Positions 5,520 to 55,992 are shown, counted from the stretch's first letter. The stretch: DNA of 64,000 nucleotides from an uncultured virus (IMG/VR IMGVR_UViG_3300021400_005597) (IMGVR_UViG_3300021400_005597); one strand, 5' to 3'. Numbers and translations: made by a program. The notes: generated by a model from the sequence alone, not told the origin.

Positions 5520-6566
5520 TTATTGTTGTTTGGGCCTATACTTTTTTGGAAAATGCATAAGACGGAAGCGGGATAATTTAAGTTTTAATTTTTCTTTGAG
5601 TGTGAGCTTATCTTCTACAGGTGGGCAAGTCCAGCCAACTTTAATATCTTCTGTGTCTTGGGTATTTTCTTTTAAAAGAGTATCAAAATTATTATAAAAT
5701 TCCTCAACCAGATGATATTTTTGTGATGTTAAATAGTCTATACAGGCATAATCATAATATTCGATAGGTTTATCAAATAAATGGTTATATTCGCTATATA
5801 ATAATCTGTAATTAGATAGCTTATCTTTGATTATTTCATCATCATTATCTGTACATTTTCCATAAAATGAATGGAATATACTACCTGCTATTGCACCTAT
5901 AGTATCTGAATCTACGGGGCGGCTATTGATAAAATGCATCATGTCAGCAAAATCATCATATTCATAGAACACTCTTATAGCAAACGGCACAGCGTCCTGA
6001 CAAGAAATATAGAATTTATATTTATCATATTCAGATAACGGTTTTTTGGGTGAATTTTGGTATTTTAATAACGGATATTGTGATATGGCATAATCCAAAA
6101 TTTCATCTTTAGTTGCTTTAGTTTTTGCCATATAAATACAAACTGCTGTTGTAATTGCACCTTTAATACCTTCAGGGTGATTATGTGTCGGAATTGCAGA
6201 AAGATAGGCTAACATTTCAGCGTCTTCCTTGGATTTTGCTATTTCGCCACAAAATGATACTCTCATAGCGGATCCATTTCCAAATGAGTTATATGCTGGA
6301 CTGTCTGATTTTCCCATCCACGCTGCAAATCTTCCACCGTAACCCATTGATGGATATTCATTTGCCAACATTCTATAATACCTGCCAAAATCATAGTCTC
6401 TTGCCATAATTGCTTTAGCTGTGGCTATGGAAAGGACTGTATCATCGGTAGGTGTTGCCTTTTTAGTATGTATTCCATAATAAAGGTCATCATCCGGGGT
6501 GTCTTCCTGATAAAACTCATATATACTACCGGCTATATCGCCTAATATTGCTCCTTTAAGTCCCAT
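5520..6566 (-). CDS. ADP-ribosylglycohydrolase (DraG/ARH family)
   Basis: GAILGDIAGS, TDDT, SFGNGSAMR, THNHPEG and DSDTIGAIAG motifs. Confidence 0.9.
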   Translation of the reverse strand: MGLKGAILGDIAGSIYEFYQEDTPDDDLYYGIHTKKATPTDDTVLSIATAKAIMARDYDFGRYYRMLANEYPSMGYGGRFAAWMGKSDSPAYNSFGNGSAMRVSFCGEIAKSKEDAEMLAYLSAIPTHNHPEGIKGAITTAVCIYMAKTKATKDEILDYAISQYPLLKYQNSPKKPLSEYDKYKFYISCQDAVPFAIRVFYEYDDFADMMHFINSRPVDSDTIGAIAGSIFHSFYGKCTDNDDEIIKDKLSNYRLLYSEYNHLFDKPIEYYDYACIDYLTSQKYHLVEEFYNNFDTLLKENTQDTEDIKVGWTCPPVEDKLTLKEKLKLKLSRFRLMHFPKKYRPKQQ

Positions 6567-10602: not shown

Positions 10603-11403
10603 TTATAAATCATATGGGTAGTAATCTCGATTATGTTTAATATTGTCATTAACTATGGCGACTAAGTCTTTTGTTAACGATTGGATATATTCAGGTACTA
10701 TATTATCGGCATGTGTTACTCCATCTTCGCTTACAACTTCATATCCGGTTATTTTCTCATTTTTCATATCTACATATATATGAAGGAAATCGTCATAATA
10801 TTTAGATTTCCAAGATTTGAAGAAATCTTCAAAGACAATTCTATATATGTTTGTATCTTCTCTATCAATTTCGTGCCAATAAAATTGAAAAACAGCCTCT
10901 CCATTAAATTCTAATGAAAATTGCTCGTCAAAGAAATCTAATATATCTTGGCGAATATCTTCATTATTTTTATCAAATATTTCGATTTTAAGGTTATAAT
11001 CAGACCTTAAATTCATTAATAATTTACCAAGTAAGTTTTTACCTTGTCCATCTACCTGTCCCCAAATCCTATCACCCCAGGTATTACCTTCAATTAAGTA
11101 TTCATCATCTGTATCAAGCAATTTTTCTTTTAAGTCGGGATTTTGGTCAAATTTAGCCTTTAACAGCCCGGACATTACACTTACCTTGATATATTCCCAA
11201 TCTTTACGAAGAGAAACTTTTCTGCCCTCTTTTTTGGCTTCAGATGGGCTCATAGTAGTAAATCTTATGCGGTCTTTAGGATTTATACATTTTTGTGCCT
11301 GAAAAGCAGCTTCGTTATTAGTATAGGTAAGCCCTTCAAAAGTAACAGGAGCTTCGTAAAAGTTGGACAGAAAAAAATATTCTTCTCTGAATTTATCTAT
11401 CAT
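10603..11403 (-). CDS. NADAR (YbiA) domain protein with C-terminal extension
   Basis: FLSNFY, EAAFQAQK, KAKFDQN, EGNTWGDRIWG, GKNLLGKLLM. Confidence 0.9.
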   Translation of the reverse strand: MIDKFREEYFFLSNFYEAPVTFEGLTYTNNEAAFQAQKCINPKDRIRFTTMSPSEAKKEGRKVSLRKDWEYIKVSVMSGLLKAKFDQNPDLKEKLLDTDDEYLIEGNTWGDRIWGQVDGQGKNLLGKLLMNLRSDYNLKIEIFDKNNEDIRQDILDFFDEQFSLEFNGEAVFQFYWHEIDREDTNIYRIVFEDFFKSWKSKYYDDFLHIYVDMKNEKITGYEVVSEDGVTHADNIVPEYIQSLTKDLVAIVNDNIKHNRDYYPYDL

Positions 11404-18255: not shown

Positions 18256-18269
18256 CGAACAGTTGTTTG
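18256..18269. promoter_or_regulatory. Putative LexA (Cheo) box
   Basis: CGAAC-AGTT-GTTTG upstream of the 5'-3' exonuclease operon. Confidence 0.55.
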
Positions 18270-18346
18270 CGTTTCGCAAGGAGCCCCAAAAATTATTTTT
18301 TTTATTTTACATATATCCACAAAGAAAACCGAAAGGAGATTTTATT

Positions 18347-19063
18347 ATGAGTTTTTTCGAAGGAATTTCTCATGTTTCGAGTGTTGTTGAATCTGATGAC
18401 AATGTAATCGAAAGTGTAAATGAAGATTATGATGAAATGCCTGATGATATCTATTCTGATAGCAGCGATGATGACTACGCTTCTATTGACACAGATGATT
18501 ATATGGCAGTTTCAACAGATGACGAAACTGATGAAGAAACAGACGATGACAAAAAGGTGGAAGAACTGCTTGATGATGTTCCTATGGTAGAACCAGAAGA
18601 AAAAGCAGAACCTGTTAAAGAAAAACCTAGTAAGGGGAAAGGTAAGAAAGTGGATAAGGTAAACAAAGTTAGTGAAGATGAAGTGTTAGATAAGAGTTTT
18701 ATTAAGATTGAAGATGGTGTGTGTATTGAGAATGCTAAAATCAATCTTGGCATTATTGATTCTAACCAGAAATTATCAATTTTAGGTAGTCGTGTTGAGA
18801 GTAAGGTTATTAAAGGATCTGAAATCAATATCTTTGAAAATACTGTTATTATCGGCAATATTGAATGTGATACGCTCATTATTAAGGGCGAGAATATTGG
18901 TATTTTAGGCAATCTGTCTGCTGACTTTGTAGATTTAGATGGCGATATCAAGATTAAGGGCGATATTCATACCAACAGACTTGATATGGGTGAAGATGTA
19001 AAGATTTGCGGTTCTTGTGTAATTACAGGTAGCGATGAATTTGATGAAAGTATCTTTGACTAG
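18347..19063 (+). CDS. Acidic protein with C-terminal bactofilin-like beta-helix
   Basis: Repeated I-x-G-N/D-I/L units; start at MSFFEG behind AGGAGA; motif at 18305. Confidence 0.6.
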   Translation: MSFFEGISHVSSVVESDDNVIESVNEDYDEMPDDIYSDSSDDDYASIDTDDYMAVSTDDETDEETDDDKKVEELLDDVPMVEPEEKAEPVKEKPSKGKGKKVDKVNKVSEDEVLDKSFIKIEDGVCIENAKINLGIIDSNQKLSILGSRVESKVIKGSEINIFENTVIIGNIECDTLIIKGENIGILGNLSADFVDLDGDIKIKGDIHTNRLDMGEDVKICGSCVITGSDEFDESIFD

Positions 19064-29202: not shown

Positions 29203-30132
29203 TTAATCTAAATCCAAATTATCGTCTTCTATGTTGTTTGTTTTATTGTGGATTAAATCATAGGCTCTTTTGTAAGAAGGTTCTATAATTAAATTATATC
29301 TTTCTGTTAACATAGTTTTATAGAAATCTTTTTGTAAATTATCCAAACATTCGGTATTATCTATAATATTAAAAATATTATCTAAATGAATTTGAGGATA
29401 AATCTTTATTAAACTATTTAGGCAATCTTTATCATCTGTAGATAGTAAATAATCTCGATAATTGATCTTTTTATCATCTATTTTAATGGCAGAAGTAGGG
29501 AAATTATAAACTCTGTTGTGCTTTTCCATATCAGAGTTTAGTATTTTTGTTATCAATTCTTTATCAGCTTGTGGATATAAACATGAACCACAGTCATATA
29601 CCGGGGCTAATTTGCTCATATCGGTTTCCTTATTATATAAAAAACCCCAATTGTCATTATGTCTATCGAAATTACCGATAAAAGCATCTACAATAAACAT
29701 ATCCCAGAATCGTTCTTTAAGTGATAAGACATCTATATTTTGCTGCTTATCTATACTATCAAGTATATCTTGTAATTCTGTGCCATAGCCATTATGTTCG
29801 CTGTCTATGATAGTATTTTTTAATGAAGCAAAGTTTTTTAAGTCGTAACCGTCTTTTTCTAAATCACCACAAGCAACAACAACTTTTGTTTTGTTATCTT
29901 TTGTATATGTGCCTAATATTGTCTTTTGAACAGGTATGCCAATACTTTCATATATTTGGCAACCTAAATATTCAGAAATGCAGCTATTTGTGTAACTCAT
30001 TTCTTTATTTTTACTAGGGATAGCCGGGAATTTAAGCATATATAATTCATTATTAAATTTGATACAAATTTTATTTCCATTTGCTCCTTCATATGTTTTT
30101 CCGGTTTTTTGGCAATATGTAAAATCTATCAT
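29203..30132 (-). CDS. HipA-like (CtkA-type) Ser/Thr kinase
   Basis: GANGNK, YMLKFP, SEYLG, GNFDRHNDNWG, APVYDCGSCL. Confidence 0.88.
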   Translation of the reverse strand: MIDFTYCQKTGKTYEGANGNKICIKFNNELYMLKFPAIPSKNKEMSYTNSCISEYLGCQIYESIGIPVQKTILGTYTKDNKTKVVVACGDLEKDGYDLKNFASLKNTIIDSEHNGYGTELQDILDSIDKQQNIDVLSLKERFWDMFIVDAFIGNFDRHNDNWGFLYNKETDMSKLAPVYDCGSCLYPQADKELITKILNSDMEKHNRVYNFPTSAIKIDDKKINYRDYLLSTDDKDCLNSLIKIYPQIHLDNIFNIIDNTECLDNLQKDFYKTMLTERYNLIIEPSYKRAYDLIHNKTNNIEDDNLDLD

Positions 30133-37943: not shown

Positions 37944-39320
37944 TTGGAGATGGGAATAAAAGAAGAACTTAAAAAGACTGAAGAAACTATTAAAAAAATT
38001 TCGCTATCAAGGGAAAGTTTTGATATAATGGGCGTAGACGAAACTACCTTTGAAACAATAATGAGGGATTTATCGAACAAACAAAGAACTTTGAAAATTG
38101 AATATGCGAAACAAAAACATGTTACTAAAGATGGTAAACCAAGAATGGTAACGCCTAATGGGAAATATTTTAAGACCTATTTACCGGATAAAACAACTGT
38201 TAGAGCAAAAACTGTTGATGAGGTGTACTTAAAACTTTACGACTACTATTCAGAGGACGGCAATTATATTACTGATTTTAGCGTGCAAAATATTTACTCT
38301 TTGGCAATTGATGCAAAAAAGAAAGCCAAAGGCGTGAGCAATAATAAAGCTGATATTTCAAAAAGTAATACTATTTTGAGATTAACTCAGGATTATAACC
38401 GTTTTATTACACCCGAGTTTGCTAAAATGGATACACAGTCTATAACACAAAATAAACTTTATGATTATATTATAGACGAATTAAATGATATTTATAGCAA
38501 AACGGGTAAGAAACTGTCTCATAAGTCATTCAATGACCATTTTAAGCGAATACTTAATTTAATTTTTGATTATGCTGCAGATCACGACATACTTGAGTAC
38601 AATTTTCTTCGCAAGAGCAATAAATTTGCATCAACTAATTTCTCAGATTTACTTGATTATGGGAAAAAGGATGCGAAAGAAAAGGCTTTTAGTGAAGAAG
38701 AAATAAAAACTATGGCAGATGAGATACAAAAACGCATTGAAATGTGGTTTGGGAAAGGTAAAATTTACACTACCGGCTATATGTTTATTTTGGCGACCGT
38801 TACAGGTTTAAGAATCGGCGAGCTGTGTTCACTTAAAAAAGAAGATGTTAATTTTAATGAGAAATATATACATGTTCATGCTCAGCAGTTAGAAGAAAAA
38901 GACGGCGATGGTTTTGGATATGTTGATCACACAAAAAATGAGAAAAATGGCTCATTAGGTGGCAGGTATGTTCCTTTAACAGATAATGTTTGTGAATTAT
39001 TGCAAGAATTATTTGAAAAACAACAACAATTTGGGATTAAATCTGAATGGGTATTTTGTAATGAGAACGGTGATTGGATTAGGCATACCCAGTATAGCCA
39101 GTTTCTTCGCAGACTTAGTAAGAAATTTGGATACGGAATAACCAATAACCACGCTATACGAATGTATTTTAACTCTTATAAACTTGTGCCACTTGGCGTT
39201 GAAGCCCCGGAGAGAGCCAAAATGCTTGGGCATAGTATAGAGGTTAACCTTAAGCATTATAGTTTTGCTGACAGGGACTATTGTGAAAAAATTAGGCAAA
39301 AACTTAATAAAATTGGTTAG
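37944..39320 (+). CDS. int: Tyrosine recombinase/integrase
   Basis: TGLRIGEL (R), TKN (K), HAIR (HxxR), MLGHS (H), KHY (Y). Confidence 0.93.
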   Translation: MEMGIKEELKKTEETIKKISLSRESFDIMGVDETTFETIMRDLSNKQRTLKIEYAKQKHVTKDGKPRMVTPNGKYFKTYLPDKTTVRAKTVDEVYLKLYDYYSEDGNYITDFSVQNIYSLAIDAKKKAKGVSNNKADISKSNTILRLTQDYNRFITPEFAKMDTQSITQNKLYDYIIDELNDIYSKTGKKLSHKSFNDHFKRILNLIFDYAADHDILEYNFLRKSNKFASTNFSDLLDYGKKDAKEKAFSEEEIKTMADEIQKRIEMWFGKGKIYTTGYMFILATVTGLRIGELCSLKKEDVNFNEKYIHVHAQQLEEKDGDGFGYVDHTKNEKNGSLGGRYVPLTDNVCELLQELFEKQQQFGIKSEWVFCNENGDWIRHTQYSQFLRRLSKKFGYGITNNHAIRMYFNSYKLVPLGVEAPERAKMLGHSIEVNLKHYSFADRDYCEKIRQKLNKIG

Positions 39321-39561: not shown

Positions 39562-39990
39562 TTATTCTTCTATTTCCTTCCAATAAGTAATCAATCTTTT
39601 GTCTTTTTGTTTTTTACAGGTGTAAGCTATATATACATCTTCATATCTGTTTTCCATATAATCATTATCAACATAAATATAGCCATATTCATCTACTGTG
39701 CCCTCACATACTTCGATGCATTCAAGGTTAAGTACGCTACCGTCATCATTGATGATATATGCAGTATCTCCGGCTTCAACTTTATATAATGTCTTAAAGT
39801 CCTGAGTTCTATGGTCTGCAATTATCCAATTATCTAATAGAAAATCCACATTATTCTCTGATGAATTGTAAAAGCAAGCGGAGTTTTTAGCATCACATAC
39901 GCTTTGCTCGTGGCTATAATATAATGGTACATCAATCTTTGCTGATGGGATTTGAAATGAAACGGCTAAGCCTAATAATAAACCTAACAT
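39562..39990 (-). CDS. Sortase-like protein
   Basis: IPSAKIDVPL, IADHR (His), AYTC (Cys), KRL (Arg); hydrophobic N-terminus. Confidence 0.7.
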   Translation of the reverse strand: MLGLLLGLAVSFQIPSAKIDVPLYYSHEQSVCDAKNSACFYNSSENNVDFLLDNWIIADHRTQDFKTLYKVEAGDTAYIINDDGSVLNLECIEVCEGTVDEYGYIYVDNDYMENRYEDVYIAYTCKKQKDKRLITYWKEIEE

Positions 39991-40043: not shown

Positions 40044-40475
40044 GTTTTAGATATCTATTATTTATTATATATTTAAAAGTCTCTGGATTTGATTACATCT
40101 ATTCTATCGGCTTTAGATATCGGTTATTTATTAAATATCTAAAAGCTTAAAACTATTGACGAAGCGAAAGATTTTGTTTTAGATGTCTGTTATTTATTAG
40201 GTATCTAAAAGGAGCCATCTAAAATCTGGTAGCGTCTCGAAGTTTTAGATACCTGTTATTCATTAGATATCTAAAAGTGCTATAACAGTCTTAATATAAT
40301 CATTTTAGTTTTAGATATCTGTTATTTATTAGATATCTAAAAGAGCACAGTTGCCATAGCACTTATGCTCCAGGTTTTAGATATCTGTTATTTATTAGAT
40401 ATCTAAAAGTGTAGCAGGTCTTAACATTTTCATTCCAGCGTTTTAGATATCTGTTATTTATTAGATATCTAAAAG
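40044..40475 (-). CRISPR. CRISPR array: 7 repeats of 36 nt, 6 spacers of 30 nt
   Basis: Repeats start at 40044, 40110, 40176, 40242, 40308, 40374 and 40440 (66-nt period); minus-strand consensus CTTTTAGATATCTAATAAATAACAGATATCTAAAAC; degeneracy increases leftwards. Confidence 0.96.
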
Positions 40476-40669
40476 GTCAAATCAACATTAGATATTAAAT
40501 TAACAGATATTGATAAAATAGTATTTCCTTCTAAATGCCCTGTAGCCATAAGAGATGTAAATATGGCTATCATTTGTTGAGCATTAAACTGAAAATGGTC
40601 TTTTATCATTTTTCCTACGGATTAGTGCCATCTCTCCATAAGGAAGGTTGCTAATTCAACCTATATTAT
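40476..40669 (-). ncRNA. tracrRNA/omegaRNA-like scaffold with anti-repeat
   Basis: Anti-repeat at 40488-40510; several hairpins; 7-bp loop-loop complement at 40551-40557/40629-40635. Confidence 0.7.
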
Positions 40670-42277
40670 TTATTTTTCAAGGTTCTTATATTTTTCCATT
40701 AATAATGGAAAATCTTTTTCGCATTCTTCTACATCATAAAAATCGTTTTTATTTTTTTTATTAATATGTGTAAGTAAAAATGCTCTATATATTATTTGTG
40801 GAATCTTTTCATCTTCCACAGTTAATATTTTTTTAAATGGTGCTTCGCTAATACCCGTGTCATGCTTAAACCATTTAAATTTATCAGGGACTTTAATTCT
40901 TTCAATTTCGTCCATATCCATTTGTTTTAAACGATTATCAATTTTTGTTAATAAAGCAGATGGAGCAGAGGTTTGCGATATTTTTCTCTTTTCTTTGAGA
41001 TATTTGTATTCATCGTCTGTGTGTGTTTTACCTACTTCGTCATCCCATATTTCTTTTTGATTAAGGAAAGACACATCTTCCATGATAAATTTATTTCCCA
41101 TACCTAATATATAATTACAAATATCCCATTGCTTTAAGTCTTTTTTTATACCTTCAATACGGAACAATTCACTTTTATTTTGGACTTCTTGCATATAATG
41201 GTTTGACCTATACCATTTTTTACGCATTTTTTGTCCATTTGGTCTTGTATAGGCTCTTTTTATTCTTCCATCTTTATGATAGTTTTGACGGTTATTTACA
41301 TATCTAAGATATGTAATTTTTTTATCGGTTTCTGCTTTTTTTTCTTCTAGTTGTTTATAATCATCAGGAAGCAAAGACGCAATAAATATTTCGTCATTAT
41401 TTATGGCACATATTGTATTCTGATAAATAGAAATAGAAACTAATCCGGTTTTATCATATTTATGTTTTTGACTGCCATTTTTGTTATAAGTAATAGGTGG
41501 TAAACCTACATAAGAAACAATAAGCATATATTTAGTTTTATTTTTAACCTGTGTAGCTTTTATAGTTACACGCTTTATGCGATTATTTAATGCTTCTTTT
41601 TGATAATCAGTTAAATCTTTATTTGGAATAAATATTTTGTTTTCTTTTTTTGTGGCTTGTCTATTTGATAATATAAGCGTATAACCGCTTTTGCCATCTT
41701 TTTCATCTTCAGTAAGCCTTATTCCTGATTTATTATCAGAAGCGAGCATTAATGTATCTCTAAATTTAGCTGTTTTAAATTTTGGTATAGGTAATTCGCC
41801 TTTTTTAGACAACTTTTTTGGATAATATCTTGATTCGAAACTTTCCCATAATGGCATCGCAACACCAAGTTGAGCCATAGTGGAATTAATATTTTCTTTA
41901 AAACAATTAAAGTTTGCGATTTCGCCAAGGAAATCATATTGTGTAAAACCATAATCTTTTAAAATAGCATTTTTTTCTTTATAAAGAGCCTTTAGTTCTC
42001 TTTCTTTTTCTTTCACAAGTTTAAGAGATTCCTTATCATCTGATTTTTTAAGTTCTCTAATTTCTGTATAAAGATTATCTATTTTACTGATTAAATCACG
42101 GTATGTATGTGTGCTTTCCATTTGTCTCATTCTTTTAAGCATTTTGCCAAGCATAGCATTGTAAATTTGCCTTTCACAATCCATGCGTTTTTTTAAATCA
42201 TCTTCCTGCCATTTAGCGAGATGTCTTAATGGAATTTTCACACAACTTATTTTTTCACCAGTTTTATTTAATGCCAT
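40670..42277 (-). CDS. TnpB/Cas12-like RNA-guided effector with inactivated RuvC
   Basis: N-terminal RQIYNAML; RuvC-I GLVSISIYQNTIC (Asp to Ser), RuvC-II IMEDVSF, SAPSALL, RuvC-III PQIIYRAFL (Asp lost); adjacent to the CRISPR array. Confidence 0.8.
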   Translation of the reverse strand: MALNKTGEKISCVKIPLRHLAKWQEDDLKKRMDCERQIYNAMLGKMLKRMRQMESTHTYRDLISKIDNLYTEIRELKKSDDKESLKLVKEKERELKALYKEKNAILKDYGFTQYDFLGEIANFNCFKENINSTMAQLGVAMPLWESFESRYYPKKLSKKGELPIPKFKTAKFRDTLMLASDNKSGIRLTEDEKDGKSGYTLILSNRQATKKENKIFIPNKDLTDYQKEALNNRIKRVTIKATQVKNKTKYMLIVSYVGLPPITYNKNGSQKHKYDKTGLVSISIYQNTICAINNDEIFIASLLPDDYKQLEEKKAETDKKITYLRYVNNRQNYHKDGRIKRAYTRPNGQKMRKKWYRSNHYMQEVQNKSELFRIEGIKKDLKQWDICNYILGMGNKFIMEDVSFLNQKEIWDDEVGKTHTDDEYKYLKEKRKISQTSAPSALLTKIDNRLKQMDMDEIERIKVPDKFKWFKHDTGISEAPFKKILTVEDEKIPQIIYRAFLLTHINKKNKNDFYDVEECEKDFPLLMEKYKNLEK

Positions 42278-42345
42278 TTTTGATCTCCATTATTTCAATA
42301 TTTATATATGTAAAATAAAAAAATAAAAAAAATAATGTAAAAAAT

Positions 42346-42377
42346 AACACCAGATAGGAAATATTTCTATCTGGTGC
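42346..42377. terminator. Intrinsic terminator upstream of the effector cassette
   Basis: CACCAGATAG-GAAATATTT-CTATCTGGTG. Confidence 0.6.
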
Positions 42378-54509: not shown

Positions 54510-54815
54510 TTATGGCCAAAATCTATCGACCAATGACTGCATGTTTTCTACTCCAACCGGATTAGAAGAATGAATAGCGATTGGGTAGAATGTTTCTCTT
54601 TGAATAAGATAATGGAGCAGTTTGATAGCATCTCCACCATCTTTGGCATAATCACCTAAATCATGGTCAAGGTCAAGAAGAGCTATACTACCACCCTTAT
54701 CTTCTATTTCTTCAATTAAAGAAATGGCCTGATTAACTGATTTTGCACAAATATAGCCATCAGGTGTAGGTCTTACATCATCAAGATAAATTTTTGCATT
54801 GTTATACCAAGCCAT
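54510..54815 (-). CDS. Cyclic-phosphate processing receiver domain protein
   Basis: IYLDDVRPTP, LDLDHDLG, IHSSNPVG. Confidence 0.85.
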   Translation of the reverse strand: MAWYNNAKIYLDDVRPTPDGYICAKSVNQAISLIEEIEDKGGSIALLDLDHDLGDYAKDGGDAIKLLHYLIQRETFYPIAIHSSNPVGVENMQSLVDRFWP

Positions 54816-55404: not shown

Positions 55405-55992
55405 CTAAATAGTGATTTCGTCGTCCTCTTTTGATTCGGACTCATCTGACAAATCTGTCGTTTCTTCGTCTATTCTTTCTTCAGTTGCTTTTGTTATTTC
55501 AACTTCCATTTCGGTGGAAATAAATTTATAATTATTCTTTATAATTTCAGATATTTCTTCAACTGTAGTTATTTTGTTTGTTGCTATATCTAAAACAAGA
55601 TTACTTGCCTGTTCTTCTGTTAAAGTTAAGGCATAGCCTTGACTGTACAAAAAAGAAGTGGCTGTGGCTAAGCCCATTCGCTTGTTACCATCAAGATAAA
55701 CCTGATATTGAGAGAAATCAAGCATATATTTAGCAGCTTTATCAAAAATTGTCGGGTATAATACTACATCGAAATATTCACCAAAAGGTGCGATAGCTAA
55801 TGATTCCAACAAATTCTGGTCTCTGATTTCAGATGAGCCACCTAAATATTCTACCATTTCTTTATGAAGCAAGTTGATATCATCTACTGTTAATGGCTGG
55901 ACATCTTTCGGTCCTTGTCCAAGCTCATCTAAAGTATTTGAATAATTTTGTTTTAAATAAGTAATAGCATGTTGAATAACTTTGCTTTCCAT
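55405..55992 (-). CDS. Fic/Doc (death-on-curing) family protein
   Basis: IRDQNLLES, YPTIFDKAA, QVYLDGNKR (His replaced by Gln). Confidence 0.85.
   Translation of the reverse strand: MESKVIQHAITYLKQNYSNTLDELGQGPKDVQPLTVDDINLLHKEMVEYLGGSSEIRDQNLLESLAIAPFGEYFDVVLYPTIFDKAAKYMLDFSQYQVYLDGNKRMGLATATSFLYSQGYALTLTEEQASNLVLDIATNKITTVEEISEIIKNNYKFISTEMEVEITKATEERIDEETTDLSDESESKEDDEITI

Follow-up and report, generated by a model that had tools for sequence, protein, structure and literature searches.

The genome fragment of an uncultured virus (IMGVR_UViG_3300021400_005597), of which a stretch of 64,000 nt was analysed (the whole of it is called the window here), carries on its minus strand an effector gene, a short non-coding region and a CRISPR array, and it raises the question of what the RNA between gene and array does. 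The effector gene, called as an open reading frame (ORF) at 42277-40670, encodes the protein P0001 of 535 amino acids and has TAA as its stop codon. Next come 193 nt of non-coding DNA (40669-40477) and the array (40475-40044), which consists of seven repeats of 36 nt (repeat 1, 40475-40440; repeat 7, 40079-40044) and six spacers of 30 nt, giving a period of 66 nt. The same-strand order of effector gene, scaffold and array is that of type V and TranC loci. In an initial annotation, made from the DNA letters, the locus was described as a natural single-guide-like scaffold with an anti-repeat fused directly 5' of the first repeat. It is probable that the 193-nt region, which is also the leader of the array, is a guide-RNA scaffold resembling a trans-activating CRISPR RNA (tracrRNA) or an omegaRNA, co-transcribed with the array and belonging to a nuclease-dead, TnpB-derived CRISPR effector. 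This reading draws on the anatomy of the locus, the fold of the region, the altered catalytic triad, the association of dead proteins with arrays, the presence of the region in RNA libraries and one compensatory base pair.

The effector protein and its related loci

P0001 had no match in Pfam, PHROGs or a sequence search of the PDB, and a single weak match to a TnpB N-terminal model was obtained with NCBIfam (E 0.0026). By tblastn, P0001 is related to TnpB/transposase genes of Clostridium, Bacillus and Geobacillus phages and plasmids (23-27% identity, 80-98% query cover), and in reference phages and plasmids all relatives of P0001 and of another protein, P0005, are less than 31% identical. A profile search collected 2732 cluster representatives at E≤1e-3, 779 of them at E≤1e-30, and profile matches in the PDB include 9j09 (E 8e-9), ISDra2 TnpB (E 1e-3) and LaTranC (E 0.2). 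The AlphaFold2 model of P0001 (predicted local distance difference test 94.2, predicted template modelling score 0.88) was matched by Foldseek to Cas12f, Cas12m and TnpB structures at E 1.7e-10 to 1e-8, with target-normalised template modelling scores of 0.44-0.69. The best match is AsCas12f (E 1.7e-10), and further ones are Cas12m2, Cas12p, the ISFba1 and ISDra2 TnpB proteins, dCas12f (9n9c) and LaTranC (9jfo). By homology and by its modelled WED-REC-RuvC fold, P0001 is a member of the TnpB/Cas12 superfamily.

The RuvC columns were read from an alignment that comprised 116 relatives out of the best 150 in the profile search. The D/E/D triad is present in 75 of these 116 proteins, and the corresponding residues of P0001 are S283/E400/I495. 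Nearly all of its closest relatives are likewise non-canonical in these columns, and close homologues read SET, TLN and SVN. Moreover, P0001 has no CxxC pairs that could form a zinc finger, and neither does the subfamily consensus. Because two of the three RuvC catalytic residues are lost, P0001 is predicted to be nuclease-dead, a point that the initial annotation had missed and that brings the system nearer to the logic of TldR and dCas12f than to that of a nuclease. The relative P0160 is identical to P0001 at 515 of 536 positions (96%) despite about 66 nucleotide differences, and it has kept S/E/I. Judged from these sequences, the effector gene is thus under purifying selection and is maintained as a non-nuclease. 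In P0006, a relative from the dead clade of P0005, an N-terminal stretch is annotated as Rep_3 (PF01051) together with PF21205, which may be a fusion or a mis-called start.

The association of dead proteins with arrays became apparent from related loci. For the relatives P0002-P0004 (50-66% identity), no locus was present in the viral contigs, the genome scan gave just a spurious match of 58 residues, and the metagenome scan returned only L001, a contig of 171,554 nt that holds the sole further copy found; the locus of P0005 was likewise absent from the viral-contig scan. Among 35 more distant loci in viral contigs, 31 encode D/E/D proteins, one a D/E/N protein, two are broken and one is dead (L007, Y/N/E). 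Only L007 has an array within its flanks. A second scan added two more dead loci, L248 (Y/N/N) and L249 (Y/N/D), both with arrays of 36-nt repeats. It also yielded the truncated loci L250 and L251, which have an intact RuvC-I motif and whose contigs end before a possible downstream array, as well as L252, which is full-length, has a canonical RuvC-I motif and is not accompanied by an array. Thus, scaffold and array occur at four of four dead loci (the window, L007, L248 and L249) and at none of the 31 D/E/D loci. Exact-pattern scans with pieces of the repeat revealed no array; they gave 0 matches, 90 loci and at least 120 loci, with single matches among those listed.

Fold and conservation of the region between gene and array

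The 193-nt region folds better than shuffled sequences (z = -3.5; one of 200 shuffles as good), and the z-score falls to -4.4 when repeat 1 and spacer 1 are added (259 nt) and to -5.95 over 361 nt (40800-40440). The minimum free energy (MFE) and centroid structures agree on one long composite hairpin (40608-40511, minus strand). In the MFE structure, it comprises the long-range stem TGATAAAA/TTTTATCA (40608-40601 with 40518-40511), an ATTTTC/GGAAAT stem, the stem AATGCTC/GGGCATT (40585-40579 with 40540-40534) and the stem TAGCCATA/TATGGCTA (40569-40562 with 40550-40543). On its 5' side, the hairpin TTCCT.ATGGA/TCCGT.AGGAA (40645-40612) is formed. Three of the five stems listed in the initial annotation, TCCT/AGGA, AATGCTC/GGGCATT and TAGCCATA/TATGGCTA, were recovered. 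The AGGTTG/CAACCT hairpin (40662-40645) exists in the sequence but is outcompeted in the MFE structure, and a proposed AAAATG/CATTTT hairpin had to be given up, its letters being taken by the long-range stem and by ATTTTC/GGAAAT. The loops AGAGATG (40635-40629) and CATCTCT (40557-40551), for which a pseudoknot had been suggested, are indeed exactly complementary; however, their complementarity is not beyond chance because 119 of 500 shuffles also yield a loop-loop 7-mer. As had been stated, no promoter motif separates gene and scaffold, there being no sigma-70-like site on the minus strand of 40669-40477. A search of Rfam gave nothing relevant, with two matches to rli38 elsewhere (E 0.4-0.8).

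The region is present in assembled contigs from RNA libraries of three studies. In X4, the metatranscriptome of the sample in which the locus is best represented, one contig is identical to 40446-40653. From a sheep gut study (X7), a contig covers 40618-40442 with four differences and continues with a different spacer of 29 letters and a repeat, and a contig from a bovine gut study (X15) covers 40729-40441 with six differences, again followed by a different spacer, of 31 letters, and a repeat. In these assemblies, scaffold and first array unit are thus contiguous, the contigs of all three studies joining the scaffold to repeat 1. No 5' end can be derived from these data because the upper contig ends differ (40653, 40618 and 40729). 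In X4, the gene body is uncovered, although uncovered parts of contig data cannot rank expression; the same holds for contig depth, which in X7 is 200 for the scaffold contig, 2.6-3.6 for contigs matching the gene and 20 for another repeat unit. As the repeats decay towards the 40044 end, the leader side of the array is its gene side. The first spacers of X7 and X15 differ from that of the window; on these sequences, the variation of the leader-proximal spacer between strains points to array turnover.

Comparison of the relatives also bears on the fold. Divergence is lower in the scaffold, which has 4-6 differences, than in the gene, where it amounts to 4-9%. The pair 40582/40537 in the AATGCTC/GGGCATT stem reads G-C in X7 as in the window, G-U in a related DNA contig (X2) and A-U in X15. 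Moreover, the change 40522 A>G found in relatives converts a C.A opposition to C-G, which lengthens a helix. X2 differs from the window at 69 positions over 40482-42304. Among the differences listed, three fall into the scaffold and, tentatively, none into 40583-40798. Such a substitution-free stretch would be in keeping with an RNA whose start lies within the 3' end of the ORF, as is the case for omegaRNAs, and the scaffold RNA may therefore begin as far upstream as about 40798. The last 129 nt of the effector ORF contain a perfect 9-bp hairpin (40712-40692, minus strand), which lies in the stretch that has no substitution in X2 among the differences listed.

The same architecture recurs in a sister clade that is about 26% identical to the system of the window. 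Covariation in related loci, proposed earlier as a check, was found: in the RNAalifold consensus of six sister-clade scaffold modules, among them an orphan at 1.8 kb from the gene and one with a lone repeat, 18 of 30 pairs show compensatory changes. In all six modules, CCTTGT stands directly after the long-range stem, and the consensus pairs it with ACAAGG of repeat 1. The order of long-range stem (ending at 40511 in the window), anti-repeat (from 40510), short linker and repeat 1 is therefore common to the window and the sister clade. Active relatives possess a conserved omegaRNA of 168-213 nt that ends in a covarying hairpin and AGTNTCAG, and the repeat ends of the sister clade (..CAAGGGTGTCAAAC) look like this omegaRNA end.

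Several further observations concern these scaffold modules and omegaRNAs. The phage TnpBs with a D/E/D triad at L003-L036 have a common omegaRNA, located about 170-210 nt after each tnpB stop. Its terminal hairpin occurs in the variants CCAACG/CGTTGG, CCCATG/CATGGG, CACGCG/CGTGTG and TTAATA/TATTAA, and the sequences diverge past AGTNTCAG, which marks the guide boundary. Orphan modules of scaffold and array are found upstream or 1.8 kb downstream of dead tnpB-like genes (L007:2581-2962, L248:2146-2458 and L249:339-716); a single protein may thus work with more than one scaffold-array unit. At L249:2155-2361, just one repeat comes after the scaffold, and an array is missing. What would be the guide leads straight into the ribosome-binding site and start codon of the gene that comes next, a homologue of which follows the L007 array. 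Such a module could represent either a fixed single guide or a form of autoregulation.

It could be argued that the region has no dedicated function and that an AT-rich leader and 3' untranslated region with incidental hairpins accompanies a decaying, domesticated tnpB gene and a vestigial array. Sequence rich in A and T forms folds easily, the pseudoknot does not exceed chance, the window lacks cas1 and cas2, and the spacers have no target found in the window or in the phage and plasmid collections. We regard this explanation as very unlikely: the gene is under purifying selection, the scaffold diverges less than the gene and shows the compensatory pair 40582/40537, the first spacers differ between strains, the region is present in RNA-library contigs of three studies, and the same architecture exists with 18 covarying pairs in a clade of about 26% identity.

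Pairing between the anti-repeat and repeat 1

Directly after the long-range stem lies a degenerate, inverted copy of the repeat (40518-40486, core 40510-40488, minus strand), separated from repeat 1 by a linker of 12 nt (40487-40476). The string ATATCTGTTAATTTAATATCTAA, which the initial annotation had designated as an anti-repeat, indeed sits at 40510-40488 of the minus strand, 12 nt ahead of repeat 1. The pairing claimed for it stands moderately above chance. According to RNAduplex, anti-repeat and repeat form 26 pairs in blocks of 5, 13 and 8 with -17.6 kcal/mol, a value reached by four of 1000 dinucleotide shuffles of the leader. Thus, as in type V and TranC loci, gene and array are separated by a structured RNA that contains an anti-repeat, and the statistical support for it is moderate. 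The arms of the repeat are palindromic (AGATATCT), so that each repeat can form a 12-bp hairpin of its own (-10.5 kcal/mol) and the anti-repeat element is similar to a direct repeat as well. Its inverted orientation is marked by the loop only (GTTAATTTA as compared with GTTATTTATT), with nine of ten letters fitting the antisense and five of ten the sense repeat by eye. When the 83 nt of anti-repeat, linker and repeat 1 are folded locally, the hairpin between anti-repeat and repeat 1 is the MFE structure (-16.5 kcal/mol, as compared with -10.5 kcal/mol for the repeat's own hairpin).

In this local fold, the leader pairs with the first repeat in competition with the repeat's own fold, and this is also what has been described for type II-A and VI-B systems, in which repeat 1 is paired with the leader segment immediately upstream of it (PMC13187072, as far as the accessible part of that paper goes). 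The element could accordingly be an array leader whose pairing regulates the production of CRISPR RNA (crRNA) from repeat 1, the rest of the region being leader and 3' untranslated region. The local MFE structure has the published geometry, and the protein might need no other handle than the 12-bp hairpin of the repeat itself. However, the mechanism of the II-A and VI-B hairpins suppresses extraneous crRNAs in systems in which crRNAs have the order spacer-repeat, and for the window the order repeat-spacer is expected. In TnpB and Cas12 systems, the guide sits 3' of the scaffold or repeat. As the degenerate repeat is the last one and the guide is expected 3' of the repeat, a hairpin between leader and repeat 1 would silence the newest real spacer. 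Furthermore, a regulatory leader leaves unexplained the conserved and covarying structure of about 150 nt upstream of the element, as well as orphan modules of scaffold and array that lie far away from gene ends, such as module 2 of L007. This explanation is therefore considered unlikely.

The palindromic arms, which make a likeness to the repeat expected in either orientation, allow a further explanation, namely that the scaffold is bound by the protein without use of an anti-repeat. The element would then be the decayed terminal hairpin of an omegaRNA, a "repeat 0", and crRNAs would join via the protein, or spacer 1 alone would be a covalent, omegaRNA-like guide. Sister-clade scaffolds have a direct, degenerate terminal hairpin with a tail ahead of repeat 1, the 3' ends of the repeats (..GTGTCAAAC) are like the omegaRNA 3' end (..AGTGTCAG) of active relatives, and the downstream L249 module has a single repeat and no array. 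Yet the loop of the element fits the antisense repeat better (nine versus five of ten by eye), and both arms have lost exactly the G that allows self-pairing and still pair with true repeats. Given also that a duplex as stable as that with the repeat is rare in shuffles (4/1000), we hold a repeat 0 to be rather unlikely.

A scaffold that is tied to the array through its anti-repeat remains the favoured explanation, and it would work as follows with regard to binding of the RNA by the protein, use of the anti-repeat in cis or trans, and binding or repression of DNA. The scaffold, possibly including the last 130 nt or so of the ORF, would be transcribed together with the array and fold into the 5' hairpins and one long composite hairpin with the anti-repeat at its end. 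The anti-repeat would pair with repeat 1 in cis, giving a molecule for spacer 1 that resembles a single-guide RNA, and it could in principle also pair with later repeats. The complex of effector and RNA would bind DNA complementary to the spacer and silence it in the manner of CRISPR interference (CRISPRi) or of Cas12m and TldR proteins; binding without cutting is expected because two of three RuvC carboxylates are lost and a zinc finger is absent. It can be stated that the anti-repeat probably tethers the scaffold to the repeat, and the use of the cis form as a single guide for spacer 1 is plausible.

Several points weigh against this explanation. A covariance model of the omegaRNAs of 16 active relatives (R1) matched neither the scaffold nor L007, and a model of the six sister scaffolds (R2) had no match in the whole window, so that sequence homology between the scaffolds of the window and the sister clade was not demonstrated with these models. 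A search of 601 nt with R2 and filters off gave weak matches of 12-13.5 bits, in which the AGGTTG/CAACCT hairpin was weakly aligned with hairpin 1 of R2 (12.1 bits, E 0.018). Among 1297 other windows of 194 nt taken from the 64 kb, 14 attain the energy of -17.6 kcal/mol as well, and several unrelated sites score better against the repeat, up to -21.5. When the whole region is folded, the MFE structure retains the hairpin of the repeat itself, and the anti-repeat is paired with the 5' end of the scaffold; moreover, a crRNA with its own 12-bp hairpin may need no tracrRNA. The change 40567 G>A in three relatives turns a predicted pair into an A.C mismatch. X2 has 110 unaligned letters between 40482, on the anti-repeat side, and the first canonical repeat, which match no simple repeat and spacer arithmetic, and the linker spacing of 12 nt is therefore kept in two of three relatives (X7 and X15). 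The RNA-library data are assembled contigs that carry no strand, RNA ends or processing, and RNA libraries can hold DNA. The retained E400 makes a residual or RNA-processing activity possible. Finally, the spacers had no target in the window at up to seven mismatches and no exact seed longer than 12 nt, no match below E 0.5 in the phage collection, and in the plasmid collection one match with E 0.4 that was not counted as a target.

The scaffold with an anti-repeat 5' of repeat 1 has thus held up, through the sister-clade topology and the contigs of three studies, and the pseudoknot part of the proposal has not. A more far-reaching version can be put forward only tentatively. In this version, a phage-borne lineage of nuclease-dead TnpBs would run a multiplex, spacer-exchanging CRISPRi. 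Its main guide would be a covalent tracr-crRNA in which the scaffold continues through the anti-repeat and a 12-nt loop into repeat 1 and spacer 1, whereas the spacers further along would use this scaffold in trans. The lineage would be a living intermediate of the split of the omegaRNA into tracrRNA and crRNA that has given up cleavage. The idea of an intermediate between omegaRNA and split tracrRNA/crRNA, which the initial annotation had also raised, has already been published for the nuclease-active TranC (10.64898/2026.03.27.714800, in its accessible part).

Known systems, carrier element and implications

The system of the window can be compared with known ones as far as the accessible parts of the respective papers describe them. 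A tracrRNA between effector gene and array is the usual layout of Cas12f and TranC loci (10.64898/2026.03.27.714800), and type V systems are described as having about 50 independent origins and including inactivated TnpBs and the group V-U24 with a non-canonical RuvC-I motif (PMC10691335). With TranC- and Cas12f-like systems, the window shares a TnpB-sized effector with a short downstream array of 32-38-nt repeats, a structured RNA of 100-200 nt with an anti-repeat between gene and array, and a repeat derived from the 3' end of the ancestral omegaRNA or right-end element RNA (10.64898/2026.03.27.714800; PMC10691335). However, these effectors are active nucleases, whereas cleavage is predicted to be lost from the S/E/I triad of the window. 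The lineage also lacks a zinc finger, has a C-terminus of the 'QRDLYSAFL' type and gives a profile E-value of 0.2 to LaTranC. In addition, its anti-repeat lies just 12 nt from repeat 1, and its repeat has a 12-bp hairpin of its own, unlike in TranC.

TldR-like proteins are likewise descended from TnpB, with a decayed RuvC site, a retained RNA-binding fold and expected DNA binding, and they are sometimes phage-borne (10.1101/2023.11.30.569447; PMC13622181). They use one omegaRNA-like guide RNA with a fixed short guide against a host promoter (fliC, oppA), and no association with arrays is described in the accessible parts of these two reports. Instead of a single guide, the window has an array of seven repeats with a first spacer that varies between strains, and no fliC, csrA or oppF neighbour was seen in it. 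In dCas12f-like systems, a dead miniature effector stands beside arrays, and covariance has pointed to putative guide RNAs in the intergenic stretch that lies upstream of the array (PMC13472631). These belong to a chromosomal Cas12f lineage of Bacteroidota, often with sigma-E, while the window holds a TnpB of the Bacillota/phage type on a phage-like element; no rpoE or helix-turn-helix partner was seen near its effector gene.

Cas12m- and Cas12k-like systems share with the window small arrays and missing adaptation genes as well as the RNA-guided DNA binding without cleavage that is predicted for it (PMC10691335), and the fold of P0001 matches 8hhl and 8pm4. Cas12k works with Tn7-like transposition proteins, none of which is encoded in the window. 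Cas12m differs from the effector of the window in keeping its RuvC residues and in using crRNA only. A natural single guide is also known from Streptococcus pyogenes Cas9, where a long tracrRNA isoform, tracr-L, targets the cas9 promoter. Both tracr-L and the RNA of the window would join a tracr scaffold with a guide function, but tracr-L belongs to type II and is not fused to the first array unit. The lineage thus sits among the known kinds TranC/Cas12f, TldR and dCas12f and is not a new category. No paper was found on a dead TnpB lineage that lacks a zinc finger and has arrays on phage-like elements, although the supplements of PMC10691335 or the original TranC paper may cover it.

The window, with a G+C content of about 31%, appears to belong to a large mobile element of phage-like character, from samples of ruminant gut. 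Its genes include NrdD, a helicase, a DNA polymerase exonuclease subunit, Ant/Bro, a Dam methylase and an integrase, and many ORFs have no family; among the 82 ORFs of the window, there is neither a virion gene nor cas1, cas2 or cas4. Directly past the array lie a tyrosine integrase gene (37944-39320, plus strand) and a small sortase-like ORF (39562-39990, minus strand), the ribosome-binding site of which falls into the sequence after the last, degenerate repeat. Upstream of the effector gene, between it and the preceding ORF, a perfect palindromic hairpin of 13 bp (42348-42376) is adjoined by two promoter-like sites on the minus strand (42389-42360 and 42341-42312). Elsewhere in the window, genes that look like host-takeover or counter-defence functions encode an ADP-ribosylglycohydrolase, a NADAR protein, a HipA-like kinase, a cREC_REC cyclic-phosphate receiver domain and a Fic/Doc protein (5520-6566, 10603-11403, 29203-30132, 54510-54815 and 55405-55992), and a bactofilin-domain protein is encoded at 18263-19063 (plus strand).

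If scaffold and first array unit do act as one molecule, the locus would represent a natural single-guide form in the TnpB/Cas12 line, and a single guide beside a spacer-changing array would bear on how the omegaRNA was split into tracrRNA and crRNA. P0001 itself is a compact dCas-like protein that is confidently folded in the model and under selection, and its guide architecture is partly mapped. Moreover, the occurrence of arrays at four of four dead loci and none of the 31 D/E/D loci points to a whole clade of binding-only CRISPR systems of phages and Bacillota in the ruminant gut, which may serve to silence rivals, hosts or the elements themselves.

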